From Minisyncoccota bacterium (GTDB lineage: Bacteria > Patescibacteriota > Minisyncoccia > Phycocordibacterales > Phycocordibacteraceae): a stretch of DNA of 64,000 nucleotides. Positions 10,410 to 64,000 of this stretch are shown here, piece by piece. The notes under the pieces were generated by a model that searched no databases, was not told the DNA's origin, and saw only the letters and a program-made list of their open reading frames with translations. Every line of letters starts with the position of its first letter. Position 1 is the stretch's first letter. Position numbers and translations under genes: made by a program. The stretch is from NCBI GenBank assembly GCA_035438505.1, contig DAORIM010000001.1, forward strand, positions 7,808 to 71,807. Direction: 5' to 3'.

Positions 10410-10462
10410 AGTACTAGTATACGTAATTACTCTGCACCATGTACGGCCTTATACACAGTGTT

Positions 10463-30251: not shown

Positions 30252-30253
30252 AA

Positions 30254-30724: not shown

Positions 30725-30726
30725 AC

Positions 30727-31611
30727 CTACTTACTCTTGAAGTTATTGATGGCATAGGACAGGATGGCACCAATAATGTCTTGATTCCCTGGTTGTGTGT
30801 ACTTAACCATTTTCTGCTTAGCTTTGTTGATTTCCGAGAAATAAACTCCGTTGCTCAAGACTTGAACATCAAGGAGCTTATTGAGCTTTATGGAGAACGT
30901 CTTTCCGTCTCCCCTAAAGACAACTCTCTTATTCGTTATCACCAATTCACCAGTACCAACGGGTACGAGTCCAGTCTCGCTAACAAGGTGTCCCCTAGAA
31001 CCTCCTACCCTATAGCTAACTCCCTTTGCGATTCTAAGACTCACTCCCTGCGATCCTCCTTCGTAACGGCGCTTGATGACTTTCTCCTCAATAAGCTGCG
31101 CTGGCTCTGCCCAATAAACCTTTTCGTCCTTTTCAGTTATCAGGTTAGGCACGAAAACTTCGGGAATATTTCCCAATTGAATCTCGTTCAATAGACGAAG
31201 TCGAGCTAGCTCCTTCTTATTTTGTGCAATCTCAACATCAGATATTCCCAGATGCTTCTGGATTCGAATCAGCTCTTCTTCCTCTTCCTTCGTAATCTGC
31301 CCGTCTGACTTCGCACTCACAAGTGCGGTCTGGTATGCACCAATCTTTGCGCGCTTTGTTTCTTCGTCAGTTAAGCCCAAATCACTTTGCCTTTTCTTAA
31401 GCTCTTCGACTTCCTTATCATCCAGTACCCCATCGGCAGCCGCCTCAACAAGAGACATTTCAAATTCCTTTTTATTCAAAGACCGCTGCTTTGATTCTTT
31501 ATATTTATCTGCAATCACTTGAAATATTTTCATGGTTTTAATGTTAAGTGTTTCTAGTCCCACGGCAATACGGGAATCGAGAGCATCCATAGAACTTGCC
31601 GAGACGGCCAC
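30727..31611 (-). CDS. hypothetical protein with N-terminal acidic helical repeats and C-terminal beta domain
   Basis: Repeats KEVEELKKRQSDLGLTDEE / KEEEEELIRIQKHLGISDVE; C-terminal GVSYRVGGSRGHLVSETGLVPVGTGELVITNKRVVF... possibly bPH-like; alternative start at 31533 would remove the overlap with the upstream gene. Confidence 0.4.
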   Translation of the reverse strand: MAVSASSMDALDSRIAVGLETLNIKTMKIFQVIADKYKESKQRSLNKKEFEMSLVEAAADGVLDDKEVEELKKRQSDLGLTDEETKRAKIGAYQTALVSAKSDGQITKEEEEELIRIQKHLGISDVEIAQNKKELARLRLLNEIQLGNIPEVFVPNLITEKDEKVYWAEPAQLIEEKVIKRRYEGGSQGVSLRIAKGVSYRVGGSRGHLVSETGLVPVGTGELVITNKRVVFRGDGKTFSIKLNKLLDVQVLSNGVYFSEINKAKQKMVKYTQPGNQDIIGAILSYAINNFKSK

Positions 31612-36106: not shown

Positions 36107-36222
36107 GTTTCTTCATAATTTAACTGGGTTCTTAACATACCACTTATCCAAAAAGGCCTTATTTAAAGGCTCTCTTTAGATTTCTTTGAGGTTTTCTTTA
36201 GAAAATATCCAGATTTTCTATA

Positions 36223-36741
36223 TCAATTCTCTGGCTTCCAGGTACCTAAAACAATGTAGTAGAAGAGGCGACGTCCGAATTCAAAAAGAAGAGCTACTGC
36301 AATTAAGTAAGCGACACTATAGAGCAACACTTCAATCCAACTACCCCTTGTTAGGGCAATATCTTCAATCTCTACTGAGGGCAGAGTGTCATTGTTATAT
36401 TTCGCGTCCAGTATTTCTCTTGGTGAACTTCTTACCTCTTCCTCCCCGCACGCTATCCGTAGTGTATATCGCTGAGCATTGCTAAGGGATTCAAGGCCAA
36501 GACTCGAGCTGTACCCTGAGAGATCGATTCGCTTATCTCTAGAGGCTTGGAAAGTAGAATGGTTCCCTCCTGTGCAAATAATCCTATGGTCCACGACGAG
36601 AGAGTCAGGCTCATTCTCGTCATAGATAGCTATGAGCATTACCAGAGTCATGATTCCAAAAAGACCGATATAACCGACTTTCAAAAGTCGATACCACCAC
36701 TTTGAATTCAGGTCTGCTAATGAATGAGGCTGTTTGTTCAT
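36223..36741 (-). CDS. hypothetical membrane protein
   Basis: Two TM helices (N- and C-terminal) flanking a soluble domain; 172 aa. Confidence 0.35.
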   Translation of the reverse strand: MNKQPHSLADLNSKWWYRLLKVGYIGLFGIMTLVMLIAIYDENEPDSLVVDHRIICTGGNHSTFQASRDKRIDLSGYSSSLGLESLSNAQRYTLRIACGEEEVRSSPREILDAKYNNDTLPSVEIEDIALTRGSWIEVLLYSVAYLIAVALLFEFGRRLFYYIVLGTWKPEN

Positions 36742-36879
36742 ATCCTTGATAACTAGGATACCAAATTTCTACTTGTTAAAGCTTGTAAACGTTTATAAAC
36801 GAAAGAGGTTCAAACCAGAGAGGTGGTTTTGACGTCGTTATGATTGAATCATTGGCTTTTACGCTTTGACACCCCCTAC

Positions 36880-37020
36880 CAGCTATCCACCAAATGTAAA
36901 AAATGTGAGGCTCTGCTTTCCAGTAATGAGGTTCTAACCTCGTGAAGCCACCTCCACCGACATAGAACTATATGGCGACATATAGAAGCATAGGAGAACC
37001 GCCTCATGGGCGGTTTTCTG
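36880..37020. repeat. island repeat unit A (GAGGTTCTAACC core + downstream hairpin)
   Basis: atccaccaaatgtaaaaaatgtgagg...gaggttctaacctcgtgaagccacctccaccgacatagaactatatggcgacatatagaa then hairpin gaaccgcctcatgggcggttttc; near-identical 3' half at 37705-37770, homologous 5' half at 41176-41235. Confidence 0.7.
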
Positions 37021-37046
37021 ATTGTCTAACTACGCACATATCATTC

Positions 37047-37607
37047 CTACTCAAAGCGATGGAATGTGAACCATTTCATGGTACCTACCGGAATTCCATA
37101 CACCTCTTCAATCACAGTTCTGGGACTTCGGAGCTCAACCGAATTCCAATCCAGCCCGAGTGAGTTTGCTGTTGTCTTTAGCGCATCTTCGCTGGGACCC
37201 TCCAATTCGACATATGTTGGTATCTTCGGCCATGTATCGATATCCACCACCACGTCACCCATATGAAACGTGTACCGCTTCTTCTCCTGATGTCGGTACG
37301 CAACATAGCCAAGGCGTTCTAAGAGTGCCTCAGCGGCATCAGCGTTATCTACCTCGAACTCAATCTCTTCCGTACCTTCAGCGGTTATTTCTGTCCGGTG
37401 CTTATAGGTGAGCTTCGTTTTCCCATCACACGTACGCAGTCGGAGAATTTTATGCGCACCGTCGCGCCAGGTCATCGCATTGTCATAAATTATGCGTTCT
37501 TGAAGGAGGTATTCTCCCTTGTCCTCAGCGCCTAACTCCTCGAGTTTCTTGATAAGTTCCTCCTTATCGATCTCGAGAAACCTGACCTCGATTTCTCTGT
37601 AATTCAT
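37047..37607 (-). CDS. CYTH-domain protein (CyaB/thiamine-triphosphatase-like)
   Basis: N-terminal YREIEVRF (ExExK) motif and further acidic residues typical of CYTH triphosphate tunnel enzymes; 186 aa. Confidence 0.7.
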   Translation of the reverse strand: MNYREIEVRFLEIDKEELIKKLEELGAEDKGEYLLQERIIYDNAMTWRDGAHKILRLRTCDGKTKLTYKHRTEITAEGTEEIEFEVDNADAAEALLERLGYVAYRHQEKKRYTFHMGDVVVDIDTWPKIPTYVELEGPSEDALKTTANSLGLDWNSVELRSPRTVIEEVYGIPVGTMKWFTFHRFE

Positions 37608-37649
37608 GTCGTTAGTATAACCCTGGCTGATGGTGGCCCGAAACTATCT

Positions 37650-37795
37650 CCTACCACCCATCCACGATCCGTAAGAAGTTAGGCGAGCTGTCCTGAATCA
37701 GACAGGTTCTAACCTCGTGAAGCCACTTCCACCGACATAGAACTATATGGCGATATATAGAACAGTAGAAACCGCCTTTGAGGCGGTTTCTACCT
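37650..37795. repeat. island repeat unit B
   Basis: ...caggttctaacctcgtgaagccacttccaccgacatagaactatatggcgatatatagaa then hairpin gaaaccgcctttgaggcggtttc. Confidence 0.7.
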
Positions 37796-37816
37796 ATCTC
37801 TCGTATTGCATTAGCT

Positions 37817-38113
37817 CTACAGGTACGCCGTTTCTTCAATAAACGCCACGACAAGGCCCGGTGACGGAGAGTTCGGCTCTATAATCACTTTCTTCCCCTT
37901 TAGGGCTGCTGATAAATCATCCACTTCAAACGCAACATGCGGTGTCGTGAGGACCAGGGCGGGATACGTAGCATCAGGGTCAAACCGCATCCATTGAAGT
38001 CGGTATGGATTCGCTTCATGATCTGTAACTGTCATCTTGAGGTGAGCAAGATACATTTCATCTTTTTGTATTTCTTTCGTGGGGATCCCTGTGTGGTTGT
38101 ACTTCACCATCAA
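37817..38113 (-). CDS. VOC (glyoxalase/bleomycin-resistance) family protein
   Basis: Single beta-alpha-beta-beta-beta module, PHVAFEVDDL motif; 98 aa. Confidence 0.4.
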   Translation of the reverse strand: MMVKYNHTGIPTKEIQKDEMYLAHLKMTVTDHEANPYRLQWMRFDPDATYPALVLTTPHVAFEVDDLSAALKGKKVIIEPNSPSPGLVVAFIEETAYL

Positions 38114-38218
38114 AGTATACCAATTGCTTACGAATACCGGTTAACGCATCAAACCGCCGGAATTGGCGGTTTGATGCAACTGACAGTCCAGGGTGCCATC
38201 CCTACACGTAGCTGTTTG

Positions 38219-38881
38219 CTACATAGTGAGGTAGATCTCTCCTGCTAGTGTTTTGATTCTGTACGATTCCATTTTCGGTCCAGGCATGCCGGGCGTTCCA
38301 GATGGCATGCCAGGGAGTGCGATTCCTGATATCTCGGGTTTCTCGGTAGTGAGTGTAGCGATGACTTCGAGAGGAACGTGTCCCTCTACCACATACCCAT
38401 CGATGATAGTCGTGTGGCAGCTTTCAAGCTCTGGTCCTATGCCGTGCGTTGCTTTAATTGAAGCCAGTTCTTCGTCAGATACATTATTAACTACGACATC
38501 TGCCGACTGTGCTTCCAGTTCCGCAATGAAGCCGCCACAGCAGCTACACCCTGGCGACTTGTATACCTCCATACGCTTGCCGGCGAGTTCAGGATGATTG
38601 TCAGCGACAGTCTTTCGTTCAGGCTGCTGTGCGAAGAGCGCCAGCGACCCACTCACAAGAACTGCAGCAACAAGCCCCGCCATGATTGGTCCCCTTAATT
38701 TCTTTTGCCTGCCGTACAGGAACCAGCCGATGGCAACACCAACTACTGCCCCTATAAGGAGCATCATGGCTAATGAAAGTAGGTCATTCCCCACTGCTTC
38801 CGGATGGTCTCCGGTATGTGCAAGCGTGATGAACGGGAGCGCGTACGAGACTGCGCCTCCCAGTAGTACTTTTGCTTTCAT
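38219..38881 (-). CDS. DUF411-family metal-binding protein (CopG-like copper-resistance associated)
   Basis: N-terminal TM anchor; KSPGCSCCGGF...SCHTTIIDGYVVEGHVP signature of DUF411; start set at MKAKVLLGG. Confidence 0.7.
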   Translation of the reverse strand: MKAKVLLGGAVSYALPFITLAHTGDHPEAVGNDLLSLAMMLLIGAVVGVAIGWFLYGRQKKLRGPIMAGLVAAVLVSGSLALFAQQPERKTVADNHPELAGKRMEVYKSPGCSCCGGFIAELEAQSADVVVNNVSDEELASIKATHGIGPELESCHTTIIDGYVVEGHVPLEVIATLTTEKPEISGIALPGMPSGTPGMPGPKMESYRIKTLAGEIYLTM

Positions 38882-38882
38882 G

Positions 38883-39434
38883 CTACTGAGGCCAGACTGA
38901 AAGCCAGTCGCGCATCGTCTCAATCTCGCGCGTCTGCGAGGAGACAATATTCTTAGCAAGCTCCTTCATCTCAGTGCGTGAGGTACCGGACTCAAGCATC
39001 TGCGCCATCATCACCGCCATCTCGTGATGGACGATCATTTGCGCGATGAACTCGCGATCGAAGTCAGATGCAGCTTGGAGGGCATCTACATCCCCTTCCA
39101 TTCCCTGCATGTGCATACCACCATGGCCCATGCTTTCGGTCGGTGCCCTATCGAACCATTCCTGGTACCACTGCTGCATCTTGCCGATCTCATCCGTCTG
39201 CGCGTCGATGATCTCTTGTGAGAGCGTACGCACGCGCTCATCCTTTGAGCGTTCAAGCGCGAGCTCTGCCATCTCGATCGCCCCTTCATGGTGCGGAATC
39301 ATCTGCTCGATAAAGTGAGCGTCTACATTGCCCATACCCATGTTATTACCCGGCATGCGTGGTGCGAATGTGTAGCCGAGGACGAGTCCCGCGATTAGTG
39401 CGACTCCCGCTATCAGTACTGTTTTATTCTCCAT
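38883..39434 (-). CDS. DUF305-family protein (copper-resistance associated, periplasmic)
   Basis: Signal/anchor then duplicated HH motifs (FIEQMIPHHEGAI..., FIAQMIVHHEMAV) and Met/His-rich linker MGHGGMHMQGMEG. Confidence 0.7.
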   Translation of the reverse strand: MENKTVLIAGVALIAGLVLGYTFAPRMPGNNMGMGNVDAHFIEQMIPHHEGAIEMAELALERSKDERVRTLSQEIIDAQTDEIGKMQQWYQEWFDRAPTESMGHGGMHMQGMEGDVDALQAASDFDREFIAQMIVHHEMAVMMAQMLESGTSRTEMKELAKNIVSSQTREIETMRDWLSVWPQ

Positions 39435-39469
39435 AGTTGATACTTATCTAATAAGCAAACTAAGGAATG

Positions 39470-39859
39470 CTATGGAGCCTTCGGGTTCAAAATGCCTTGC
39501 GAGAATAGGAGGGTATACAGAGGAACGGGTACTGGTTGAGCCGAGGGAAAAGCCCGATGTCTTTTCCTCGGCGGATGAAGAAGCAAAAGTCCAGACACGA
39601 GCACCGGCACGACAAGCAAGAGCGTGATGGAGTCGAGTGTAGGCTGTGCCTGCGAAAAGCTGCCGATCAAAAGGTCCATGTCGCTGTACGACATGGTGCA
39701 AAGCGACATACCAGCTACCGACACTTCGCATCCGGAGCCATGGTCTCCGTGTACAAGGGGAAAAGCGAAGGAAAAGGTGCCGATATACAGCAGTGCTCCG
39801 AGAAGGAGGAGGCTCGTAATACGTCTTAGCCCTAGTCCCGACATGCGCATAGTGTACAC
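39470..39859 (-). CDS. hypothetical small membrane protein
   Basis: Two hydrophobic segments, HGDHGSG and Cys/Met residues; sits between DUF4396 and DUF305 genes; overlaps an alternative longer ORF in another frame, so coding status uncertain. Confidence 0.3.
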   Translation of the reverse strand: MYTMRMSGLGLRRITSLLLLGALLYIGTFSFAFPLVHGDHGSGCEVSVAGMSLCTMSYSDMDLLIGSFSQAQPTLDSITLLLVVPVLVSGLLLLHPPRKRHRAFPSAQPVPVPLYTLLFSQGILNPKAP

Positions 39860-40318
39860 CTAGTGCCCATGGTGAGCATGCACAACCGCATGCCCCTTCC
39901 CTCTGGCAATGAGCCAACGGTTGACCGGAAACGCGAACATCCCCGCGACGACTAGCGCAAGCACCATGCTCCCCCAGAACAACGGGCTCGTAAGTCCAGC
40001 ATCCATAGCGCCTGGAATAAGGAGCATGACCGCATTGTCGACAACCTCCATGATTGCTATAGAGACTGTGTCTGCAGCGAACGCTAATCCAATGGCGGCA
40101 CCGAGTGTCATCCCATGCCGTAGGAGCGGAACCATCGTGAAGAGATACCCGAAGAAGAAGGCGAGTACCACAGCGAGCAGGATAGTTTGCCCTGTTCCCC
40201 ACCCAAGTGCCGTACCGATAACAAGACCGAGTACCTCGCCAGTCGCGCAGCCAGTTAGACAGTGGAGTGTGGCACTAAAGGCTACTTTGTTGAGGCTCTG
40301 CCCATGATTGTGATCCAT
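39860..40318 (-). CDS. DUF4396-family membrane protein (metal-homeostasis associated)
   Basis: HCLTGCATGE motif at first TM helix, four TM segments, His-rich C-terminus HAVVHAHHGH. Confidence 0.6.
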   Translation of the reverse strand: MDHNHGQSLNKVAFSATLHCLTGCATGEVLGLVIGTALGWGTGQTILLAVVLAFFFGYLFTMVPLLRHGMTLGAAIGLAFAADTVSIAIMEVVDNAVMLLIPGAMDAGLTSPLFWGSMVLALVVAGMFAFPVNRWLIARGKGHAVVHAHHGH

Positions 40319-40319
40319 A

Positions 40320-40586
40320 CTAAGCGCGCTTTAGTGAGTAAACCTTCAAGATCTCCTTCGTTGCCTTACCTTCCTGTCCCTTTTTCATCTGCCCGATGAC
40401 GCAGGTACCAAGATGGCTTTCCAGGAGCTGGTCTTCTACGCCTGACAGCGCACGCTTCACGGCCGAAGTCTGCGTGATGATATCAACGCAGTAAATATCC
40501 TCTTCAATCATTTTCTTTAAACCTCGTACTTGTCCCTCTATGCGATTTAGTCGGTTTAATACCTGCTTCTTTGCTTCTGTCTTCAT
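40320..40586 (-). CDS. csoR: CsoR/RcnR-family metal-sensing transcriptional repressor
   Basis: 88 aa; LNRLNRIEGQVRGL helix, conserved Cys (YCVD) and His (ESHL, GTC) ligand positions typical of copper-sensing CsoR. Confidence 0.8.
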   Translation of the reverse strand: MKTEAKKQVLNRLNRIEGQVRGLKKMIEEDIYCVDIITQTSAVKRALSGVEDQLLESHLGTCVIGQMKKGQEGKATKEILKVYSLKRA

Positions 40587-40593
40587 GCACTCA

Positions 40594-40614
40594 ATATACC
40601 CCCATGGGGTATAT
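40594..40614. promoter_or_regulatory. CsoR-type operator (GC-tract inverted repeat) in divergent promoter region
   Basis: atataccccCATggggtatat: arms ATATACCCC / GGGGTATAT match the known CsoR operator style (TACCC...GGGTA); located between csoR (-) and the DUF305 membrane gene (+). Confidence 0.6.
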
Positions 40615-40630
40615 TGTCAAAGTCTACACA

Positions 40631-41116
40631 ATGAGTATCCTAAACACTATGGATCATCACAAAAATTACGGTCGTCTTCTTCTCATGTTCGTCCTGCACC
40701 TCATTGCCATGTACGTGCTCATGTACGCCATGGTGGATGCCTTCGGAAATATCCACCCAAACCATAATCAGTTCTATATGGCGGCGCTCATGGCAGCGCC
40801 AATGGTGGTACTCGAACTTCTCATCATGGGTTCTATGTATCCGAAAAAGAGACAGAATGTGGGGATTATTGCAGTTGGTGTATTCCTGCTAGTTTGTTCA
40901 TTCATTTTCATCAGACAGCAGGTTGCCATTGGAGATGAGCAGTTTCTTAAGTCCATGATTCCTCACCACGCTGGGGCGATACTTATGTGCGAGAAGGCAC
41001 ACCTAGAAGATCCCCAGATTAAGGAACTCTGCGGGAATATCCTTTCGGGTCAGCAGACAGAGATTGAGTGGATGACGACCAAACTCCAATCTTTAGAAAG
41101 AGGTTCTAACCAATAG
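40631..41116 (+). CDS. DUF305-family membrane protein
   Basis: Three TM helices then KSMIPHHAGAILMCEK DUF305 motif; start at ATG 40631; last six codons (gaa aga ggt tct aac caa) are a copy of the island GAGGTTCTAACC motif. Confidence 0.55.
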   Translation: MSILNTMDHHKNYGRLLLMFVLHLIAMYVLMYAMVDAFGNIHPNHNQFYMAALMAAPMVVLELLIMGSMYPKKRQNVGIIAVGVFLLVCSFIFIRQQVAIGDEQFLKSMIPHHAGAILMCEKAHLEDPQIKELCGNILSGQQTEIEWMTTKLQSLERGSNQ

Positions 41117-41169
41117 TTCACGTCCGGACTCAAAATACGTGCGCTGATTGGCTTTTGACCTCTTTCCCC

Positions 41170-41290
41170 ACTACCACTCATCCACCACTTTTAAGAAATG
41201 TGAGGACGTGCCTTGCAAGAGTGAGGTTCTAAGCTCATGAACCCAATTCCACATGGTTTCATGAAAAGGCCCTAACGGGCCTTTTTGTAT
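41170..41290. repeat. island repeat unit C
   Basis: atccaccacttttaagaaatgtgaggacgtgccttgcaagagtgaggttctaagctcatgaacccaa then hairpin aaaaggccctaacgggcctttttg. Confidence 0.6.
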
Positions 41291-41362
41291 ATACACGTCC
41301 TTATCGAGGGGAGGTTCTATTATTCTGCAGCAACCTCTCAGAATTCCCCCACCTCTCGCCTC

Positions 41363-42034
41363 TTAAGATTTATCGAGCTGGGCCAAATGATGCGAGATGT
41401 CCTCTTCTGAGGTGACTTGGTAGGCAATACCTCCAACAGCTCTAAAGGTCTCACAAGCTCCCGTGGAGTCATCTATAAGGATGCTACGTTCTACTGGGGC
41501 TGAATATTTGTTTATGTAATCTCGAAATACTTCCCCTTCGTTATCACTTTTGAACTTACCTTCGTAGTAAGAGTTACTAATATCGTCGAAGTAGTCTTTC
41601 AACTTCAAGGCAGGGACAGTAAATCGGGCGAAACTATCCATATTCACAGTTATCAAAATAGTTGTATATATCTCTCGAAGATTCCCTACAGTTTCAAGGA
41701 CATTTTTTGAAACATTCATAGTTTCTGCATCCCTTACAAAGACTTCTCATATCTCTTCGAATGGAATTCTTAGCTGCTCAGACAGGAACTGATTTACTTC
41801 TTCTGCAGTATGTTTCCCTTTCATCCACTCCTCTGCATAGCTTTTCCTTTCTTTAAAAAGGAGTGTTTGTACCTTCTCATACTGTTCTGCAGGAAGACTT
41901 CGCCAAAACCGATCATGGCAAAGTGTTCCATCAAAATCTATAAAAAGAATCGGTTTCATTTGAGTATCAAGAATATTATACAATATACTCGCTCTAGGTG
42001 GATAAACTGCTGAGATTTTCAGCAGTTTATCCAC
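41363..42034 (-). pseudogene. HAD-superfamily hydrolase interrupted by an in-frame TGA (two ORF fragments in the same frame)
   Basis: Fragment 41747-42034 has motif I ILFIDFDGTL; fragment 41363-41719 has SILIDDSTG (motif IV-like); they are in the same frame separated by TGA at 41744-41746 and 8 sense codons. Confidence 0.5.
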
Positions 42035-42166
42035 CTAGAGTTATCCTGTCAAATTCATTGCTTTTACAGGTAAACCTGTGTACATTTACTAATAGCTCAT
42101 CTACCTAGTCGCAGAAGGAGTAAAGAGACCGCCATTTATGTGGCGGTCTCGGCTTTTATACTGGTA

Positions 42167-42658
42167 CTAAATACCGTGAAAGCTCTTATATTCCTTTTCA
42201 AGCTTCCTTTTTGTGTGCGAATAAGTGACCGGGTACGCAGTCCAAGGAATTAAGTATTCTTTTCTCTTTGCGAGAACTACCAGATACTCCCAGTCTCCGA
42301 AACAGATGCAAATCCTACCTTCTGTAACTCCGTCCTTATTGACTCTCGTGTTTTCCCAAACTTTTACATATTCAGGGTAAGAGTCGCAATCATCGATAAT
42401 AGGCTTTGGCCACTTTATCCTTTCGCATCGTGATTCATCTTTAACCCGCTCAACCTCTATCTTCCCTTCTGATATGAGGTGCCAAAATGTGGCCTCCTTT
42501 CCTTCTACTTGAGGATGCTTTTTAAGACCAAGTCGAGTACCGCGAAATACTGGTCTTTTGTGCACAAAATCTGCTTGGAAAAGTTCGTAAACGGCCTCTA
42601 AATAAACATCCCAGTCGTTTCCATGGTCAACTAGCCTGATTAATTCTGGTAACTTCAT
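42167..42658 (-). CDS. hypothetical protein (partner of DUF3800 gene)
   Basis: 163 aa, 11-nt gap to upstream DUF3800 gene; no family recognised. Confidence 0.4.
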   Translation of the reverse strand: MKLPELIRLVDHGNDWDVYLEAVYELFQADFVHKRPVFRGTRLGLKKHPQVEGKEATFWHLISEGKIEVERVKDESRCERIKWPKPIIDDCDSYPEYVKVWENTRVNKDGVTEGRICICFGDWEYLVVLAKRKEYLIPWTAYPVTYSHTKRKLEKEYKSFHGI

Positions 42659-42669
42659 GATGAGAGAAA

Positions 42670-43371
42670 TTAGCCCTCAGAGTGCCAGACAAAAAGATTG
42701 AACTTATCTTCACTAGGCAGTGTCGACTTTGTGAGAGAATATTTTGACCTCTCCTGAATTCTTTCAATTACTCGCTGTTTTGCTTCGCTAGATTTAATGC
42801 CTCGATTTAGGTGAGAGACAGCGCCTATTAGCAGATCCGCTAATTGCATAATTCCAACCTCCTCTGATCTTATGATCTGCATATTTTGAACAATACGCGA
42901 ATTAAAATCATACATATTTCTTCCCAACACCTTATGTAGTTGTTTAACCTTTGCGCCGCCACGAGTATCTTTTATATCAATATAAATGTCGTAGGTATCC
43001 TGAGGACTTAAAACGGCTTTTATCATTGTGAAATACATCCTGTAGTAAAAGTCGTCATGACTCATCTCGAACTTTTGGTGATCGAGAGCCATCTTATTAG
43101 GCACAACAAGTCCCCGAAAATGCAGGTCTGGCGAATCGAAGAAATAATCTACAAGATGCAGATACATCGGAAGTTTCTTTGGAGAAATCTTGGTCCACTT
43201 GATTTCAGTCCAAGGAGATAGCCCGTATTGCGTCTTTATCTCTCTTATTCGGGTCAAAATCTCCTGCGCTGAATCCTTTGGACACCACACAGCACCCAGC
43301 ACCATCGCTGTTTGGTGATCATTTTCGAGATGACAGCTCTCATCGCAATACAGGTTGTATTTAACGGCCAT
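42670..43371 (-). CDS. DUF3800-family protein
   Basis: N-terminal YNLYCDESCH motif (DUF3800 hallmark D-E-S), 233 aa, AT-rich. Confidence 0.55.
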   Translation of the reverse strand: MAVKYNLYCDESCHLENDHQTAMVLGAVWCPKDSAQEILTRIREIKTQYGLSPWTEIKWTKISPKKLPMYLHLVDYFFDSPDLHFRGLVVPNKMALDHQKFEMSHDDFYYRMYFTMIKAVLSPQDTYDIYIDIKDTRGGAKVKQLHKVLGRNMYDFNSRIVQNMQIIRSEEVGIMQLADLLIGAVSHLNRGIKSSEAKQRVIERIQERSKYSLTKSTLPSEDKFNLFVWHSEG

Positions 43372-43621
43372 TGGGATAATGATACAGGAAATCCCATCTT
43401 GTTGCTGGTTTTAGATAAGGAGGTTCTAATCTCCCAGCCCAGTTCTGGGTACCCCGTAGGCACGTATTGGCTTTCGTGTACTCATGGTGATACCCGACTC
43501 TGGTTCGTTTGATGAGCTCCTGAATAGAAATGTCTCCTTTAAAGAGGCCTGGACTCAATTCGTTGCGACGCATAAACCGGATTAGGAACGTCTTTTCATT
43601 TGCCCATAGCGCATACAACAA
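43361..43621 (-). CDS. hypothetical small protein at distal island edge
   Basis: 86-aa ORF spanning the GC transition; weak. Confidence 0.2.
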   Translation of the reverse strand: MLYALWANEKTFLIRFMRRNELSPGLFKGDISIQELIKRTRVGYHHEYTKANTCLRGTQNWAGRLEPPYLKPATRWDFLYHYPNGR

Positions 43622-43641
43622 AACCGCCCAACGGCGGTTTT
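43618..43641. terminator. hairpin at distal island boundary
   Basis: aaaaccgcccaacggcggttttgc, same accgcc/ggcggt stem family as the hairpins following repeat units A and B. Confidence 0.5.
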
Positions 43642-43662
43642 GCTACACTCCCTATTCTTAAA

Positions 43663-44103
43663 TTATTTCTCCGCAATCTCCTTGAGCTTCTCAAGCGCCT
43701 TCGGCCACATGTCGTTAAACATATCGGCGTACTCGTCAGGAAGTCCGGAAAGGTCAACGGAGACTTCTGTACTCCCGTCCTTGTCTGTAAGGGTGTAGTT
43801 CTCAAACCCTGACGTTCCTTCCCAAGGAATCTCTTCGCCGTTCCGTATCTCCGCCTGATGCTGAAGAGAAATAAATTCCTGCGGACGATTCTCCTTTACG
43901 AGCGCTGCCATTCCGCCCTCCTTCCCTCCCTCAGGATCGGGACCAAGAAACTCCATGCGGGATCCCTCGCTCCAGTCGCCGACGAAGTAGGAACCGTGCG
44001 AGAATACTTCCGACCATTGGCGGTATGTCTCGTCTCCGAGCATAGCGTCCCACACCTTCTGGCGTGGCGCGTTGATCTGAATTTTGTAGTGTAGATCAGT
44101 CAT
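43663..44103 (-). CDS. SRPBCC-superfamily protein (AHSA1/activator-of-Hsp90-ATPase-like domain)
   Basis: ~146 aa, helix-grip fold pattern INAPRQKVWDAM...YRQW; typical stand-alone AHSA1-domain size. Confidence 0.55.
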   Translation of the reverse strand: MTDLHYKIQINAPRQKVWDAMLGDETYRQWSEVFSHGSYFVGDWSEGSRMEFLGPDPEGGKEGGMAALVKENRPQEFISLQHQAEIRNGEEIPWEGTSGFENYTLTDKDGSTEVSVDLSGLPDEYADMFNDMWPKALEKLKEIAEK

Positions 44104-55767: not shown

Positions 55768-56037
55768 TTACCAGGAAGCTTTCTTAACGCCCGGGATCTT
55801 GCCCTCAAGTGCGAGCTCGCGGAAAGCGATGCGGGAAAGACCGAAATCACGCATGTAGCCACGACCGCGGCCGGTAATAGCGCAGCGGTTCTTAACACGA
55901 ACCGGAGACGCATTCTTCGGAAGCTTCTGAAGACCGTCCCAATCGCCAGCAGCCTTAAGCTCCGTGCGCTTTGCAGCGTACTTGTCGGCGAGCTTAATGC
56001 GCTTTGCGTTGCGGGCGAGTTGGGATGTTTTGGCCAT
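55768..56037 (-). CDS. rpsN: 30S ribosomal protein S14 (long, non-zinc type)
   Basis: 89 aa, [13 protein letters not shown]...[25 protein letters not shown]. Confidence 0.85.
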
Positions 56038-56111
56038 AAGAAAAAAGCTCCGGGGAGCCGTTCCACCAATCTATCAGCCAGGAAGTAGGCTGTCAAATCA
56101 ATGTGGAGACC

Positions 56112-56139: not shown

Positions 56140-56688
56140 TTAGGCAGCGTCCTGCTTCGGGATTTGGAGGTACTTGTACACCTGGTTTGGAGGCAGGAAG
56201 TAGTTCGCAGCCCAGAATGGCTTGGTTCCTTGCTGCAGCACGAGCTGAACCCAGTACTTTTTCGCCCTCCCCTGTCCCACCATGCCCCGAAACAAAACAT
56301 GGGACGTGTGGCAGTGGGTAGCGAGTATGTCCGTGGCAAGCTCAGTGAGCTTGCTGTTGAACGCCTCCTGAATCGTGTAGGCGTCCTCTTCGGCCAGGTT
56401 AGACAGCTGAAGAAGCTCACCGTGAGTCAGATACCGCCTTTCTGGCGACACCAGCTCAAAGAGACGCTCGGCATCAATACCAGTCCCCCGCGCCTCAGCG
56501 GTGAGCGTTTCCTTCCTGGGCATCCAGAGCCGCAACTTGAAGTCTACGCGCTGCGTCTCTCGAACCCAGGAGGCTGAGAAGGCAACGCGAGCGTCGTCGA
56601 TGAGTTCTTCGACGTGACTGTGTTCGTATCCCACATCGCGGCTCGCAAACTCAAGCCACGCAGGATCGCTTTTCATCGGAGTTAACAT
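56140..56688 (-). CDS. hypothetical protein inserted within the spc ribosomal operon (between rplE and rpsN)
   Basis: 182-aa ORF with no ribosomal-protein similarity, bracketed by hairpins at 56112-56135 and 56755-56781. Confidence 0.45.
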   Translation of the reverse strand: MLTPMKSDPAWLEFASRDVGYEHSHVEELIDDARVAFSASWVRETQRVDFKLRLWMPRKETLTAEARGTGIDAERLFELVSPERRYLTHGELLQLSNLAEEDAYTIQEAFNSKLTELATDILATHCHTSHVLFRGMVGQGRAKKYWVQLVLQQGTKPFWAANYFLPPNQVYKYLQIPKQDAA

Positions 56689-56754
56689 TCGAGGTCCTTC
56701 CTGAACAAAACGTTCCTCCCCGATACTTCACCATCGAGCGGCATATGTCAAAGA

Positions 56755-56781
56755 AAAAGCCCGCATCTGCGGGCTTTTTCT
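56755..56781 (-). terminator. terminator/attenuator hairpin of the conserved family, directly after rplE
   Basis: aaaaagcccgcatctgcgggctttttc. Confidence 0.6.
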
Positions 56782-56795
56782 TTGAGTGAAGCGTA

Positions 56796-57332
56796 TTACG
56801 CCTCTTTCTTAAATGGAATGCCGAGGTGGCGGAAGAAGGCTTCTGCCTCTGGCTTGGTCTTCGCTGTTGATACAAGCGTGATAGCCATACCGAATACGTC
56901 CTTGAGGTCTTCTTCTGCAGTCTCAGGGAAGATCGTGTGATCCTTGATGCCGATGGTGAGGTTGCCCATCTCATCAACGCCCGAAATGTTGAGTCCGCGG
57001 AAGTCGCGCGTACGAGGAAGCGTGATGTGGATGAGCTTGTCGAGGAACTCGTGCATGCGTGCGCCGCGAAGTGTTACCTGAAAGCCAATGATGTCGCCTT
57101 CGCGCATCTTGAACTGGGCAATGGACTGCTTTGCTGCGCGAGGCGCTGCCTTCTGTCCGGTAACCCGGGAAAGACGATCCTCTACGAGTGCCTTCTTTGT
57201 CTTGTCAGCCTTGCCGACGCCTGAGGACACCACGATCTTCATAAGACGCGGAGATGCGTTTACGTTCGTGTAGCCAAACGACTCCTTGAGAGTGTCGAAT
57301 GCGTTTGCAAGCTTTTCTTTAGTCATCATCAT
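56796..57332 (-). CDS. rplE: 50S ribosomal protein L5
   Basis: Canonical L5 core (SPRLMKIVVSSGVG..., GLNISGVDEMGNLTIGIKDH). Confidence 0.9.
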   Translation of the reverse strand: MMMTKEKLANAFDTLKESFGYTNVNASPRLMKIVVSSGVGKADKTKKALVEDRLSRVTGQKAAPRAAKQSIAQFKMREGDIIGFQVTLRGARMHEFLDKLIHITLPRTRDFRGLNISGVDEMGNLTIGIKDHTIFPETAEEDLKDVFGMAITLVSTAKTKPEAEAFFRHLGIPFKKEA

Positions 57333-60086: not shown

Positions 60087-60434
60087 TTATTTCTTCTTAG
60101 GCGCTGCAGGAGCGGCCTTAGCTGCCTTAGCGGCGGTGATCTCAGCCTGCTTCTTCTTCTCTTCAAGCTGCTTCTGCATCTTACCTCCGTGGCGTACGAA
60201 CTTCTTGGTTGGCGAGAACTCGCCAAGGCGGTGTCCTACCATTTCCTCGGATACGAGGACGTCTACATGGCTCTTGCCGTTGTGCACGCCAAACGTAAAC
60301 CCAACGAACTCCGGAGGGATCTGGCTTGCGCGTGCCCACGTCTTAATGACGCCGGCATCTGACGGCTTTTTGTCCTGAATCTTCTTCATGAGCTTCAGGT
60401 CAACGTATGGGCCTTTCTTGAGTGAGCGGGACAT
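60087..60434 (-). CDS. rpsS: 30S ribosomal protein S19 with Lys/Ala-rich C-terminal extension
   Basis: [19 protein letters not shown]...[24 protein letters not shown] core; tail ...[23 protein letters not shown]. Confidence 0.85.
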
Positions 60435-60471
60435 GGATAGACAATGGAAAGCCCGCCAAGCGGGATAGATA

Positions 60472-60501
60472 GAATCTATAGGAAACGGGAGTCTATGTCA
60501 A
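60472..60501 (-). promoter_or_regulatory. candidate sigma70-type promoter for rpsS and downstream genes
   Basis: Minus strand reads TTGACA-(18 nt)-TAGATT ending ~35 nt upstream of the rpsS start. Confidence 0.3.
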
Positions 60502-60560
60502 ATAAAGGGCCAGCGTGCTAGGGTTTCCGCAGAATTGAATTCAACCCTGGGAGACTGGTT

Positions 60561-61073
60561 ATGCTGCTCAGACGAGATCTGTACCGGGTCATTACTGACG
60601 AAGACGAGCAGGAGATCGAAAGACTCTTTAAATTGGCGCTCGATCTCCGCTTTAGACTCCCTGCGTACTTGGAGGAAGTTTGGCTGGTGGCTGGAAGGAA
60701 GTACTACCCCGAATGCCACGAAACAGCTCATGCTTTTGCCCAAATCGCTGGAATTGAGGCGGTAGATGGAGAACATGTTGTGCTTACCAAGACCAACTGC
60801 TCTTCGGAGGAAGGTGATTTTGGAGCTAATTACACAACGGTTCTTCACTCTTGGAACGTGTTTGAGGTTCCGAGCGGACAAAAGTTCATTCTCGACGTTC
60901 TACCTGTATACGACTCCTCTATACTGCCCATCGTGCTTCAGGCTCCGAATCCTGCCTACTGGATTCCTAAAGACGCGCTGAGAGTTAATGCGCTCAAACA
61001 AATCCAGGAGCCGCGCATGCAACACCGAATTAAGAACCTGGCTGAGGCAATGCAAAAGGTGCTCGAGAGTTGA
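60561..61073 (+). CDS. hypothetical protein (first gene of the opposite-strand insertion in the S10 operon)
   Basis: 170 aa, no recognised family, host-like GC. Confidence 0.4.
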   Translation: MLLRRDLYRVITDEDEQEIERLFKLALDLRFRLPAYLEEVWLVAGRKYYPECHETAHAFAQIAGIEAVDGEHVVLTKTNCSSEEGDFGANYTTVLHSWNVFEVPSGQKFILDVLPVYDSSILPIVLQAPNPAYWIPKDALRVNALKQIQEPRMQHRIKNLAEAMQKVLES

Positions 61074-61936
61074 CCCCGCTCCGGCGGGGTCTTTTCCTTA
61101 GGCTATACTTCTTCTATATGATCGACCTCAACTCCCCCTCTGCCCGACGCATGGAGCTTATCGGCGCGAGCGTTCTTATTGTTATCGTCCTCGGCTTTAC
61201 CATCTGGTACATGGCCACGCACCAGGCTCCTGAGCCATACGCGCCCTTCCCGGGAACCGTTGAAGAGGTTGTAGAGACGCTTCCGCCTGAAGTGTACGAA
61301 GAACACGGCACCTACTTTGATATAGAGGCCACCTACCCCGCAGAAACGCCCCTTAAGGCGAGCGCGAGCGCTGAGGCAGATGCAGAGGCCGTATCCCTCA
61401 TGGAGGACTTCGTAGACGAGACTATTGCCGACTTCAAGCGCCAGGGCGACTTCGACAATCTCACTCCTGCTGATATCGAGCTTATGGGCCTTTCTGACAC
61501 CCGCAAGGAAAGCATCATGATCTCGTACGAAGAGTACGCAGGAGCGGATACCGTCTCCTACGTGTACACCCTCTACGTTGATACGCTTGGCGCGCATCCA
61601 AACGCCTTCTTCCGCACCTTCACCTTTGACCGCCTTTCGGGAGAAGAGCTGAAAATAAACGAGCTCTTCGTTTCCGGCTCCGACTATCTCGGGCGCCTCT
61701 CCGCTATCGCAGAGTTTGAGCTTTCAAAGTCTCTTGGAGAGTTTGCCGACATCGAGTACATCCGCCAGGGCGTCGCCAAGGATGCTATTAACTTCCAAAG
61801 CTTTGCTATAGACGGCGAGAATCTTGTTCTCGTCTTCCCGCCGTACCAGGTAGCGCCCTACGCAGCTGGCACGCAGGAAGTATCCATTCCTCTTTCTCAG
61901 CTTTCGGAGATTCTGAAGCTGGAATACCTTCCTTAA
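61070..61936 (+). CDS. membrane-anchored protein, possibly DUF4163/DUF3298 (RsiV/PdaC-like) two-domain fold
   Basis: N-terminal TM helix (LIGASVLIVIVLGFTIWYMA), acidic linker, ~230-aa extracytoplasmic region; family assignment tentative. Confidence 0.4.
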   Translation: MTPLRRGLFLRLYFFYMIDLNSPSARRMELIGASVLIVIVLGFTIWYMATHQAPEPYAPFPGTVEEVVETLPPEVYEEHGTYFDIEATYPAETPLKASASAEADAEAVSLMEDFVDETIADFKRQGDFDNLTPADIELMGLSDTRKESIMISYEEYAGADTVSYVYTLYVDTLGAHPNAFFRTFTFDRLSGEELKINELFVSGSDYLGRLSAIAEFELSKSLGEFADIEYIRQGVAKDAINFQSFAIDGENLVLVFPPYQVAPYAAGTQEVSIPLSQLSEILKLEYLP

Positions 61937-61995
61937 GTTGCGCACGGGGTACCAACAAGATACGGTACCCATAGACAGCACAGAGGAGACGAATT

Positions 61996-62202
61996 ATGTG
62001 TGAAGGATGTGGATGTGGAGACCCAGAGCCGCGCGTAAATCCTGCAAAGCTTGCGCAGGCTCGTATCAACCTCCGGAACCGCGGCATCGACACGAATGCC
62101 ATCTCCGACCCTGACTGCTACGGAACGCGTAGCCAGAAAATCGGCCGATGGTTCGGGAGACTCTGGTTCAACTTCAAGATTGCTGCCGGTTGGACCTGGT
62201 AG
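61996..62202 (+). CDS. hypothetical small Cys-rich protein
   Basis: 68 aa beginning MCEGCGCG, further Cys at DPDCYG; Trp-rich C-terminus. Confidence 0.3.
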   Translation: MCEGCGCGDPEPRVNPAKLAQARINLRNRGIDTNAISDPDCYGTRSQKIGRWFGRLWFNFKIAAGWTW

Positions 62203-62207
62203 CGAAA

Positions 62208-62279
62208 GAAAAGGCCGGAACCCTCAGGTTCCGGCCTTATCTCAATTTAAAGAAAAGCCCCGCATTCGCGGGGCTTTTC
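62208..62279. terminator. tandem terminator hairpins (second is a member of the conserved family), bidirectional between the insertion (+) and rplB (-)
   Basis: aaaaggccggaaccctcaggttccggcctt followed by gaaaagccccgcattcgcggggcttttc. Confidence 0.65.
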
Positions 62280-62280
62280 T

Positions 62281-63123
62281 TTATCGCTTCTTTCCAACCT
62301 TGCGGCGAGAAACAATAAACTTGTTCGAGTACTTCTTCGGTGTGCGGGTCTTCTGGCCCTTGCCGGTTGGACGGCCCCAGATGGACTTTGCGCGACGGAG
62401 ACCGCGTCCCTGGCGTCCTTCACCACCGCCGTGTGGGTGATCAACCGGATTCATGGCAGTACCACGCACGGTAGGGCGGATACCCTTCCAACGGCTCTTG
62501 CCGGCCTTTCCGTAGTTCTGCAGGCGCTGCTCCTCGTTGCCAACAGCACCAACGGATGCCCATGCAGACTCGATGATCTTGCGGATCTCGCTCGATGGCA
62601 TCTTTACCTGCGCGTATCCAGCGTCATGCGCAACGATCTCGCAGTAGTTTCCTGCTGAGCGTGCGATGCGTGCTCCTGCTCCTGGACGAAGCTCTACGTT
62701 GTAGATAAATGTTCCTGCTGGAATCTTCGCAAGCGGAAGGCGGTTACCCGTCTTGATCGGTGCCTTCTCAGAGATGAGGAAGGTGTCGCCAACCTTCATG
62801 TCCTTCGGAACGGTTACGTAGCGGCGCTCGCCATCAGCAAATACCGTAAGCGCAATGAATGCGGTGCGGTATGGATCGTACTCGATGGTCTCGATGCGCG
62901 CTGGAATGTCGCGCTTCTCGAGCTTGAAGTCCACGTCGCGAAGGCGGCGCTTATGGCCTCCACCCTGGTGGCGCATGGTGATGCGTCCGGCGTTGTTGCG
63001 GCCGGCCTGGTTCTTCTTCGTTGAAAGAAGCGCCTTATGTGGCTTGTCGCCTGAGAGTACGCCACGGTACGTGACGACAGTCATTGAGCGACGAGACTTT
63101 GAGGTTGGCTTGAAAGACTTCAT
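62281..63123 (-). CDS. rplB: 50S ribosomal protein L2
   Basis: Canonical L2 (GRNNAGRITMRHQGGGHKR..., RGTAMNPVDHPHGGGEG) with basic C-terminal tail. Confidence 0.9.
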   Translation of the reverse strand: MKSFKPTSKSRRSMTVVTYRGVLSGDKPHKALLSTKKNQAGRNNAGRITMRHQGGGHKRRLRDVDFKLEKRDIPARIETIEYDPYRTAFIALTVFADGERRYVTVPKDMKVGDTFLISEKAPIKTGNRLPLAKIPAGTFIYNVELRPGAGARIARSAGNYCEIVAHDAGYAQVKMPSSEIRKIIESAWASVGAVGNEEQRLQNYGKAGKSRWKGIRPTVRGTAMNPVDHPHGGGEGRQGRGLRRAKSIWGRPTGKGQKTRTPKKYSNKFIVSRRKVGKKR

Positions 63124-63134
63124 GGTAATAGAGG

Positions 63135-63509
63135 TTATGCGAGCGTGAGGGTGTCACCCTTCTTGAGGTAGACGTATGCCTTATGGCGGCGAGCGCGCGT
63201 ACCGACGCCGCGGCGTGTGCGAAGCGATACCTTCTTTGCAGGAAGATTCGCCATGCGCACCTTCGAAGGAATCACATTGAATGCCTTCTCGATAGCGTTT
63301 GCTACGTCGAGCTTGGTTGCCGTTGCCGGAACCTCAAAGACGTAAACGCCGTTCTCAGTGCCGATAAGAGCCTTTTCTGAGAACCATGGGCGCTTCAGGA
63401 TGTTCGCAATGCGCGCGTCATCCTTCTTTAGCAGACCCTCGCCCCAGGTGCGTACCCCGGACTTCTCCTTCTTTGGAGCCTTCTTGTTGTCGTTAGAGAA
63501 AAGTGCCAT
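63135..63509 (-). CDS. rplW: 50S ribosomal protein L23 with N-terminal Lys-rich extension
   Basis: Core ...LKRPWFSEKALIGTENGVYVFEV...KKGDTLT. Confidence 0.8.
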   Translation of the reverse strand: MALFSNDNKKAPKKEKSGVRTWGEGLLKKDDARIANILKRPWFSEKALIGTENGVYVFEVPATATKLDVANAIEKAFNVIPSKVRMANLPAKKVSLRTRRGVGTRARRHKAYVYLKKGDTLTLA

Positions 63510-63520
63510 AGATACGTATG

Positions 63521-64000
63521 TTATGCCTTCTTCGTAAGGCGCGCGGAGAGCTGCGGTAGCGCCTCAGCCGGATTCTCAATAACGAGGTACTTCTTCGTTA
63601 CGAGATCAACCGGGTTAAGGTTGCGCGCTTCCTCAAGCGTGAGGCTGCCAATGTTGCGGAACGACTTCGCGACGTTCGCATCCTTCTTCGCGAAGGCAAC
63701 GATTGCTGCGTTCTTGCGCTTGGTTGCGAGCTTTGCGGCACCGGAACCTGCAGCGATAGCAACGAGCATTGCCTTTGCGTCCTTAGTCTTTGGTGTTGCA
63801 AAGGAAAGCGTGTTCACGAAGAGCACCTCGCCGTCCTTCCACTTCTTCGAAAGCACTGAGGCAAACGCTGCTGCACGCATCTTGCGGTTGATCTTCACCG
63901 AGTAGTCCTTATCTGCACGAGGACCGTGGGTCACACCGCCGCCCTTCCAGATTGGAGAGCGAGTGGAGCCGTGGCGGGCGCGTCCTGTTCCCTTCTGCTT
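63521..64000 (-). CDS. rplD: 50S ribosomal protein L4 (5'-truncated by window end)
   Basis: Contains conserved SPIWKGGGVTHGPR region reading through position 63934 to the window edge. Confidence 0.8.
   Translation of the reverse strand, partial: KQKGTGRARHGSTRSPIWKGGGVTHGPRADKDYSVKINRKMRAAAFASVLSKKWKDGEVLFVNTLSFATPKTKDAKAMLVAIAAGSGAAKLATKRKNAAIVAFAKKDANVAKSFRNIGSLTLEEARNLNPVDLVTKKYLVIENPAEALPQLSARLTKKA

Follow-up and report, generated by a model that had tools for sequence, protein, structure and literature searches.

We analyzed a 64,000-nucleotide stretch of DNA from a Minisyncoccota bacterium (contig DAORIM010000001.1 of assembly GCA_035438505.1, positions 7,808 to 71,807; called the window in the following), in which the S10 cluster of ribosomal protein genes is interrupted between rplB and rpsS. 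The S10-spc cluster is among the most conserved gene orders of prokaryotes, and the canonical S10 operon of E. coli and B. subtilis reads rpsJ-rplC-rplD-rplW-rplB-rpsS-rplV-rpsC-rplP-rpmC-rpsQ. According to the list of open reading frames (ORFs) and to Pfam, the window keeps the one-strand order rplW-rplB-rpsS-rplV-rpsC-rplP-rpmC-rpsQ on its minus strand, and the unit downstream of the interruption runs rpsS-rplV-rpsC-rplP-rpmC-rpsQ-rplN-rplX-rplE. The genes do not abut as they would in a contiguous operon: rpsS starts at 60434 and rplB stops at 62281, and the gap of 1,846 bp separating them (60435-62280) carries three ORFs on the opposite strand, referred to here as the cassette (Table). An earlier reading of the same DNA, made from the sequence alone and called the original prediction below, had claimed that opposite-strand genes sit inside the minus-strand S10 order, and the flanks are now confirmed by Pfam (rplB product: Ribosomal_L2_N 1.6e-30, Ribosomal_L2_C 8.2e-49).

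Table. Features at the rplB|rpsS and rplE|rpsN junctions, with positions counted from the first letter of the window
Feature	Position	Strand	Description
rplD	63521-63934	-	from ORF list and Pfam
rplW	63135-63509	-	from ORF list and Pfam
rplB (ribosomal protein L2)	62281-63123	-	closes the upstream half of the S10 cluster
Terminator T1	62248-62283	both	perfect 16-bp hairpin, A-tract before, T-tract after
Terminator T2	62211-62238	-	12-bp GC-rich hairpin, then TTTTCTTT; in tandem with T1
ORF3	61996-62202	+	68-residue Cys-rich orphan ORF (MCEGCGCG...), variable slot B
ORF2	61118-61936	+	272 residues, membrane-anchored DUF3298 protein
Terminator-like hairpin	61072-61091	+	8-bp stem, then TTTTCCTT; overlaps the ORF1 stop codon
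ORF1	60561-61073	+	170 residues, cytoplasmic, variable slot A
Extended -10 TGcTAGGGT	60516-60524	+	points to ORF1; notional -35 overlaps the rpsS -35
rpsS promoter TTGACA-17 nt-TAGATT	60473-60501	-	10/12 matches
rpsS leader	60435-60466	-	hairpin CCCGC-UUG-GCGGG (60452-60464), then CUUUCCAUUGUCUAUCC, then AUG
rpsS (S19)	60087-60434	-	first gene of the downstream unit; Pfam S19 2.8e-32
rplE	56796-57332	-	last gene of the rpsS unit
Terminator hairpin after rplE	56748-56785	-	z -7.7, 0/200 shuffles fold as well
orfX	56140-56688	-	182 residues, between rplE and rpsN, on the cluster's own strand
rpsN promoter-leader module	56038-56096	-	TTGACA-17 nt-(TGa)TAGATT, hairpin 56046-56059, U-run, AUG
rpsN	55768-56037	-	followed by rpsH-rplF-rplR

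Compared to the canonical S10 operon, the order and orientation of the ribosomal genes are alike. The difference is that the cluster is cut at rplB|rpsS by putative terminators, antisense non-ribosomal genes and a candidate internal promoter, and is cut again at rplE|rpsN. From these terminators and this promoter it is predicted that a single transcription unit starting at an rpsJ promoter does not hold. At rpsQ|rplN, which is the S10/spc boundary in E. coli, this genome has no visible break.

To place the interruption among related genomes, loci were collected by a scan with the rplB protein over one genome per GTDB species, which gave 80 loci of Paceibacteria with rplB 60-95% identical (L numbers denote individual loci). 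Twenty-four of these, with rplB at least 74% (74-95%) identical and both rplB and rpsS inside the locus, were taken as the clade set. The gap between the two genes measures 1.0-2.7 kb in 24/24 clade loci, and in 23 of the 24 species it contains an antisense orthologue of ORF2 with 37-76% identity (L001-L019, L021-L023 and L029). L003 represents the minimal form, its gap holding the ORF2 orthologue alone, and the gap of L020 holds other genes. The same architecture occurs in four further metagenome contigs (L081-L083, L091), and ORF2 orthologues occupy the same antisense site in L081, L083, L091-L093 and in one listed context without DNA. Homologues with 43-53% identity are found at this site in further public contigs, including the published genome of Parcubacteria bacterium C7867-004, and genomes with the split arrangement have been public since at least that assembly. 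A side observation concerns L017, where the ORF2 orthologue is spread over three ORFs (5606-6900); it may be a pseudogene or the result of sequencing frameshifts.

The original prediction had favored an old rearrangement over a recent mobile insertion, and the comparison bears this out: 23 of 24 clade species share the architecture, distant ORF2 homologues do so too, and signatures of mobility are missing. According to the synteny comparison the arrangement is a trait of the clade and not a peculiarity of this genome, a possibility that the prediction had itself raised as an objection. The source is a metagenome-assembled genome, and one might suspect that a chimeric join during assembly or binning put foreign genes into the operon. 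The probability of such an artefact is negligible, as the same architecture and junction sequences recur in dozens of assemblies that were made independently, in different studies and with different assemblers.

The break point is not confined to the clade. Sixty-nine loci were informative for the state of the rplB|rpsS junction: in 14 the two genes lie within 56-202 nt of each other, 23 are split with an antisense DUF3298 gene, 20 are split with 0.7-5.2 kb of other cargo, and 12 are without rpsS within 4 kb or more. Most neighboring Paceibacteria are broken at this junction too, with other cargo. Ten distant loci have rplS (L19) directly after rplB, seven of them belonging to the group of 12 that is without rpsS. 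Here (L043, L044, L049, L053, L054, L058, L059, L063, L064, L078; approximately 6843-7400) rplS starts 2-100 nt after rplB and there is no rpsS in the locus, which covers 6 kb downstream in six cases and ends at 0.7-2 kb in the rest. In these ten loci the cluster is fully dispersed at rplB|rpsS, and rplB has a new ribosomal neighbor.

The conserved gene of the gap, ORF2, had been described as encoding a membrane-anchored protein of about 290 residues. The anchor was recovered, but the length was not: the listed TTG start at 61070 would give 288 residues, and the start was placed at the ATG at 61118, giving 272 residues, because the alignment with orthologues puts it there. The product matches Pfam DUF3298 (PF11738; 6.7e-15, 56.2 bits compared to a gathering threshold of 24.1), and its sequence matches in the PDB are 3cyg, MPT64 and 3s5t. 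The AF2 model, with a predicted local distance difference test (pLDDT) score of 92, contains one long N-terminal helix (residues 7-34) with a hydrophobic core at about 13-32 as judged from the sequence. In the predicted layout, a short N-tail in the cytoplasm is followed by one transmembrane helix and then by a two-lobed DUF4163/DUF3298 domain outside the cytoplasm. Foldseek found 3cyg (E 2.5e-12; template modelling (TM) score 0.79-0.82), RsiV-lysozyme 5jen (1.8e-9), PA4972 and MPT64, in agreement with the two-lobed DUF4163+DUF3298 fold of the model.

The whole ectodomain of ORF2 superposes on 3cyg, 4e72, 5jen, 3s5t and 2hhi, and in this respect the protein is like the PF11738 members RsiV, MPT64, PA4972 and BF2082. 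It differs from RsiV in the N-terminal part, where approximately 12 residues precede the transmembrane helix and there is no anti-sigma domain. Its scores stay far below the cut-offs of the functional families: 21.9 bits for NCBIfam RsiV (cut-off 250) and 54.7 bits for the NCBIfam Rv3036c esterase (cut-off 200), the latter over the C-terminal half only. NCBI names it 'RsiV family protein'; we would file it only as a DUF3298/RsiV-fold surface protein. The guanine plus cytosine (GC) content of the gene is 0.55, and its codon log-likelihood ratio (0.33 per codon) is similar to that of rpsS (0.38).

One part of the original prediction had to be given up, namely that the gap holds one three-gene insertion. 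If the window is compared by blastn to the nearest relatives L001, L010 and L012, just three segments align: rplB together with T1 (62245-63200), ORF2 (61093-61941), and rpsS with its upstream block up to 60525-60533. Because the DNA similarity stops, resumes over ORF2 and stops again, ORF1 and ORF3 are regarded as occupants of two separately variable slots, and only ORF2 is conserved. Neither slot A (60526-61092, with ORF1) nor slot B (61936-62244, with ORF3 and T2) has a counterpart in the three relatives, and for the ORF3 region no similar DNA was found there. The statement that the GC content is host-like is right only in part: compared to the values of ORF2, ORF1 has a GC content of 0.50 and 0.03 per codon, and the codon score of ORF3 is -0.04. 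Over the cassette the GC content is 0.50-0.57, and the codon usage is atypical in ORF1 and ORF3 only.

Among species with rplB 88-95% identical, at least three families without relation to each other occur in slot A. In L005, L007, L009, L010 and L012 the slot holds a fast-diverging family of loosely related proteins with 154-188 residues and no Pfam match. A third family occupies slot A of L002, L011, L092 and L093; in L069 and L070 its homologues lie elsewhere in the gap. Another relative carries orotidine monophosphate (OMP) decarboxylase in slot A. In slot B or elsewhere in the gap the relatives carry a 2-oxoglutarate-Fe(II) (2OG-Fe(II)) oxygenase, HIT and NUDIX proteins, SAICAR synthase and small unknown proteins. 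The idea that ORF1 is a divergent form of the relatives' slot A proteins was rejected, the best E-value of a profile search being about 0.2. A reading as a defence island was rejected as well: PADLOC gave 0 matches when run on ORF1-3, orfX and six proteins taken from the slots of relatives. With two positions of gene turnover among close species and fixed flanks, the locus is like the known hypervariable slots or genomic islets. It differs from them in that recombinase, attachment repeats and known defence genes are absent, and in that it sits inside a ribosomal protein cluster.

These results bear on the possibility that a cassette of three genes was recently acquired by horizontal transfer, as a mobile element or islet, between rplB and rpsS of this genome. 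Such an event would agree with the atypical codon usage of ORF1 and ORF3, the lower GC content of ORF1, the patchy occurrence of ORF1 and the uniqueness of ORF3, and with both slots differing even from the closest relative L001 (rplB 95% identical). We nevertheless consider it very unlikely. ORF2 has host-like codon usage and syntenic orthologues in 23 species-level relatives and beyond, the split and its promoter and terminator furniture are common to the relatives, and at the cassette we found neither an integrase, transposase or other recombinase gene nor terminal inverted or other flanking repeats nor target duplications. At most, ORF1 and ORF3 are individually recent.

ORF1 has an exact database match (PK609_00480, Candidatus Paceibacterota bacterium) and four homologues with 44-65% identity among 5.8 billion proteins. 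Where flanks are available (L081, L082, L083) these lie at the same site, with rpsS on one side and a DUF3298 gene after ORF1, and a metagenome scan for further ORF1 loci found one. A family member with 39% identity is divergent to a DUF3298 gene, and remote members stand in other contexts. The family is small and uncharacterised (31 clusters), and a transglutaminase/papain-like fold is predicted for it on the basis of the structural model. The putative triad is Cys52-His96-Asp112, with Cys52 present in 28/30 sequences (Ser in two) and His96 and Asp112 invariant. The residues follow the order Cys-His-Asp expected of such enzymes; the Cys is located at the N-terminus of the predicted helix 52-63, and the His and Asp on the predicted strands 88-102 and 108-112. 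We compared ORF1 to the transglutaminase/papain-like enzymes TglA, protein-glutaminase, LapG-type BTLCP, arylamine N-acetyltransferases and PNGase. It differs from them by its size of approximately 170 residues, by helical N- and C-terminal extensions of its own, and by having no match to PDB sequences or, in Pfam and NCBIfam, to curated families such as Transglut_core or BTLCP. An assignment as HExxH zinc metalloprotease was rejected: the motif HETAH is not conserved among 30 members, where position 54 varies and H57 is not invariant. ORF3 matched only itself among the 5.8 billion proteins and had no match in Pfam, NCBIfam or PADLOC, and homologues of ORF1, ORF3 and orfX were found in none of the 80 species-representative loci.

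The two tandem hairpins after rplB had been predicted, and they are real in terms of folding: the z-scores are -9.2 (minus strand) and -10.9 (plus strand), and 0/200 shuffled sequences were as good. T1 and T2 together have a folding energy of -55 to -57 kcal/mol, and after rplB the GC-rich hairpin is followed by a U-run, as is expected of an intrinsic terminator. T1 looks like an intrinsic terminator in both directions, for rplB on the minus strand and for the cassette on the plus strand. In this it resembles known bidirectional terminators of convergent genes, being a perfect hairpin with A- and T-tract; the only unusual point is the second terminator in tandem. T1 falls within the DNA block shared with L001, L010 and L012, and T2 falls within the non-conserved slot B (blastn). 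A hairpin with a T-run after the rplB stop was seen by eye in most of 25 close relatives, being weak or unclear in L011 and L020. The hairpin at 61072-61091 (z -2.4, 6/200 shuffles fold as well) could, as far as its sequence tells, probably separate the transcription of ORF1 and ORF2 in part.

For rpsS, the original prediction had named a candidate promoter with TTGACA and TAGATT, and both hexamers stand (10/12, conserved in relatives), but the spacer is 17 and not 18 nt. The site lies 38 nt ahead of the rpsS ATG, and no other match of equal quality occurs on the minus strand of the region. As shuffled sequence yields about as many promoter-like sites (mean 1.7), the case for this promoter is built on its conservation in relatives. 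The hexamers and their spacing are the same or nearly so in all close relatives and in L081-L083 and L091-L093. The close relatives share the string TTGACA, 17 nt, TAGATT, (C/T)TA(T/C)CTATCCCGC, three variable bases, GCGGGCTTTCCATTGTCTATC(T/C)ATG, which is almost invariant, with the hairpin loop as its main variable spot and with freely diverging DNA just upstream. The same string was found in the independent contigs L081-L083 and L091. Judged by sequence comparison, this putative promoter block is the most conserved thing in the region.

Promoters with at least 9/12 matches within 120 nt of rpsS were found in 49/57 related loci in addition to the window. They occur in 13/14 of the loci with adjacent genes and in all nine rplB-rpsS spacers of 56-80 nt. 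In these nine species the -10 ends 8-12 nt ahead of the rpsS ATG, and therefore nearly leaderless messages are implied. As an example, TTGACT-17-TAAATT ends 8 nt before the rpsS ATG in L034, L036, L040-L042, L045 and L050 (spacers 56-80 nt), which implies that the predicted rpsS mRNA of these species would be leaderless or nearly so.

On the opposite strand, an extended -10 of the form TGnTAnnnT is fixed at 13-14 nt from the rpsS -35 in 17/25 close relatives; in the window it falls within the conserved block of DNA, whose end is at 60525-60533. The block resembles two promoters placed back to back, a bidirectional promoter whose predicted start sites are approximately 65 bp apart. This might suggest that the inserted genes are tied to the ribosome and co-regulated with it, for example as ORF1-type enzymes that modify ribosomal proteins; in a variant, competing overlapping promoters would make ORF2 expression inverse to ribosome synthesis. 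The fixed distance would fit, as start sites so close to each other would make the RNA polymerase footprints overlap. ORF2 has also been held at one site across deep divergence, and transglutaminase, protein-glutaminase and N-acetyltransferase folds are protein-modifying. Taken together, both variants are still quite improbable. The predicted orientation of ORF2 is outward from the membrane, which would put it far from ribosomes, the slots contain unrelated housekeeping or unknown genes, ORF1 is absent from 80/80 species representatives with its remote relatives in other contexts, and the conserved synteny may be inertia of a gene locked between two essential units.

The rpsS leader hairpin starts 9 nt past the -10 hexamer, which corresponds to the predicted 5' end of the mRNA. 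Across the clade its stem is invariant and its loop variable. Among the longer leaders, 15 of 16 distinct types have a hairpin that begins 8-12 nt past the -10 and precedes a U-rich stretch, and their stems represent at least eight unrelated sequences; 0.2-8% of shuffled leaders have these features. Protective 5' stem-loops are known from ompA and as Bacillus 5' stabilisers, and an attenuator analogue is the L4 control of the E. coli S10 leader. The leaders described here are similar to both in that the hairpin lies at most approximately 2 nt from the predicted 5' end and is followed by a U-rich stretch and a ribosomal protein unit. They differ in having only 5-7 bp, no Rfam family and a position before rpsS and rpsN rather than rpsJ, and they are known from sequence. 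In the window no Rfam leader family reached its gathering threshold, and in 60380-60600 only noise appeared at E up to 10.

Instead of a passive 5' stabiliser, the hairpin and U-tract after the rpsS and rpsN promoters could be an attenuator or an autoregulatory operator for a ribosomal protein. The likeness to an intrinsic terminator points in this direction, being strong in L037, L066, L069 and L075 and before rpsN, and so do the 16 nt past the rpsS hairpin, which are almost invariant in the clade, beyond what a stabiliser needs. We regard this function as possible but doubtful. The rpsS hairpin of the clade is trailed by only three U residues, and in every case the hairpin begins 8-12 nt past the -10, directly at the 5' end, as expected of a protective stem-loop. 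Some species have leaders of just about 8 nt without a hairpin, an Rfam match is missing, and the hairpin sequences of rpsS and rpsN differ, which makes a shared protein or DNA operator unlikely.

The second break, at rplE|rpsN, consists of a strong terminator, orfX as a unit of its own, and a promoter-hairpin-U-run module ahead of rpsN that shares the design of the rpsS module. No significant family match was obtained for orfX in Pfam, NCBIfam or PADLOC. The rpsN module is kept in L003, L016, L023, L026, L069 and L070, including loci whose rplE-rpsN spacer measures just 62-72 nt (range 62-1,010 nt). Scanning both strands of the 64-kb window and of seven 12-kb loci from relatives, we found the promoter and hairpin design only ahead of rpsS and rpsN. 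The rpsN copy of the window only partly fits the tail criterion of the scan, and a strict scan of the 12-kb window segment returned the rpsS copy only.

We consider it likely that the locus reflects an old, clade-wide re-partitioning of the ribosomal protein supercluster and not a recent insertion. The 'S10 operon' would end at rplB, with transcripts stopping at T1 and T2. The rpsS-rplE unit would start from its own near-consensus sigma-70-type promoter, its mRNA opening with a protective hairpin if this is not the attenuator or operator mentioned above, and a third unit would begin likewise at rpsN. An ancestor may have gained one antisense gene between rplB and rpsS, encoding the outward-facing, membrane-anchored DUF3298 protein, which has been retained since. 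The divergent extended -10, which adjoins the rpsS promoter back to back, presumably drives the cassette, in which ORF2 is probably the long-term resident. The contents of the two slots flanking ORF2 turn over among closely related species, the occupants here being ORF1 (A) and ORF3 (B). The junction would tolerate gene traffic because rpsS needs no read-through from rplB, and it could take insertions, replacements and even dispersal without harm. If insertion there is harmless, this would explain why the junction is broken in most Paceibacteria examined. Since distant relatives with adjacent genes already carry a promoter in the spacer, the promoter plausibly predates the insertions, and we infer that ancestral internal promoters probably made the junctions permissive for insertion.

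Gene order, its conservation, the variable slots, the sequence motifs and the modelled protein folds are observations, whereas the action of the motifs as promoters and terminators, the role of the 5' hairpin in mRNA stability or attenuation, the ancestral state of the internal promoter and the biochemical roles of ORF1 and ORF2 are inferred. Several points weigh against this explanation. The promoters, transcription start sites and terminators are sequence predictions backed by conservation only. The leader hairpins are small, with energies no better than those of shuffled sequences (z -1.1, for rpsS, and +0.2), and compensatory covariation was not seen within the clade, where the stem never varies. 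Because the single-sequence energies are not significant, the support for the hairpin comes from its positional recurrence with different stems in distant species. The order 'promoter first' was deduced from the states of the 69 loci without a tree, and a loss of inserts could match these states. The 80 loci came from a single scan as its best-scoring rplB relatives, and they do not sample the class in a balanced way. Finally, ORF3, a candidate ORF with a good Shine-Dalgarno sequence, has a codon score (-0.04) that is not distinguishable from non-coding sequence, and it may not be a gene.

A more far-reaching extension, which we consider speculative and rather unlikely, is that rplB|rpsS and rplE|rpsN act as 'cargo docks'. 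They would then be hypervariable slots, bracketed by conserved bidirectional promoter and terminator modules, in which accessory genes are cycled, the leader with its hairpin and U-tract would be an undescribed regulatory RNA for ribosomal proteins in this radiation, and ORF1 and ORF2 would be linked factors of the envelope or of host interaction. If true, streamlined genomes of the candidate phyla radiation (CPR) would cycle fast-evolving genes beside their strongest housekeeping promoters.

We found no description of a split S10 cluster in Parcubacteria, Patescibacteria or CPR in the searchable literature, which is not proof of novelty. Each element by itself is of a known kind, be it a break of or an insertion into a ribosomal cluster, an internal promoter, a bidirectional terminator, a 5' stem-loop or a DUF3298 protein. 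What appears to be new is their combination: a recurrent break point, promoter-leader modules before rpsS and rpsN, and a clade-fixed antisense RsiV-like gene with turnover slots. The genes for L2, S19, L22, S3 and others form a syntenic marker block that is routinely concatenated for phylogenies of candidate phyla, and the break at rplB|rpsS affects the recovery of this block from fragmented assemblies. The antisense DUF3298 gene is usable as a synapomorphy for one clade, and the locus may serve as a natural example of internal promoters rendering an essential operon open to insertion. Leads for further work are the widespread rpsS/rpsN leader element, an RsiV-like surface protein in organisms thought to be host-attached, and the putative new Cys-His-Asp enzyme family of approximately 170 residues.

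Some minor observations were made in the window. A recognizable Shine-Dalgarno sequence is absent from rplW, rplB, rpsS, rplV, rpsC, rplP, rpmC, rpsQ, rplN, rplX, rplE, rpsH, rplF and rplR, and is present at the accessory ORFs (GGGAG at ORF1; GAGGAG, 7 nt upstream, at ORF3). Its absence at rpsS was rejected as a special trait, as none of the ribosomal protein genes of the cluster has one. At 24000-43900, directly downstream of the transfer-messenger RNA (tmRNA) gene (23685-24094), lies a block of approximately 20 kb with low GC content (0.39-0.48 compared to about 0.55). This is probably a genomic island with ssrA as its integration site, and it includes an ORF of 1,520 residues (31544-36106). 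The GC content of this island contrasts with the 0.50-0.57 of the cassette. At 21049-21125 ARAGORN called a tRNA-Ile with the anticodon TAT (UAU); in bacteria AUA is normally read by a lysidine-modified CAU tRNA, and a UAU anticodon is uncommon. Finally, a type IV pilus-like cluster occupies 100-11551 on the minus strand, recognized by eye from N-terminal motifs only. It comprises several prepilin-type proteins, one ORF like a prepilin peptidase, and further ORFs like those for the ATPase, the platform protein and PilM.

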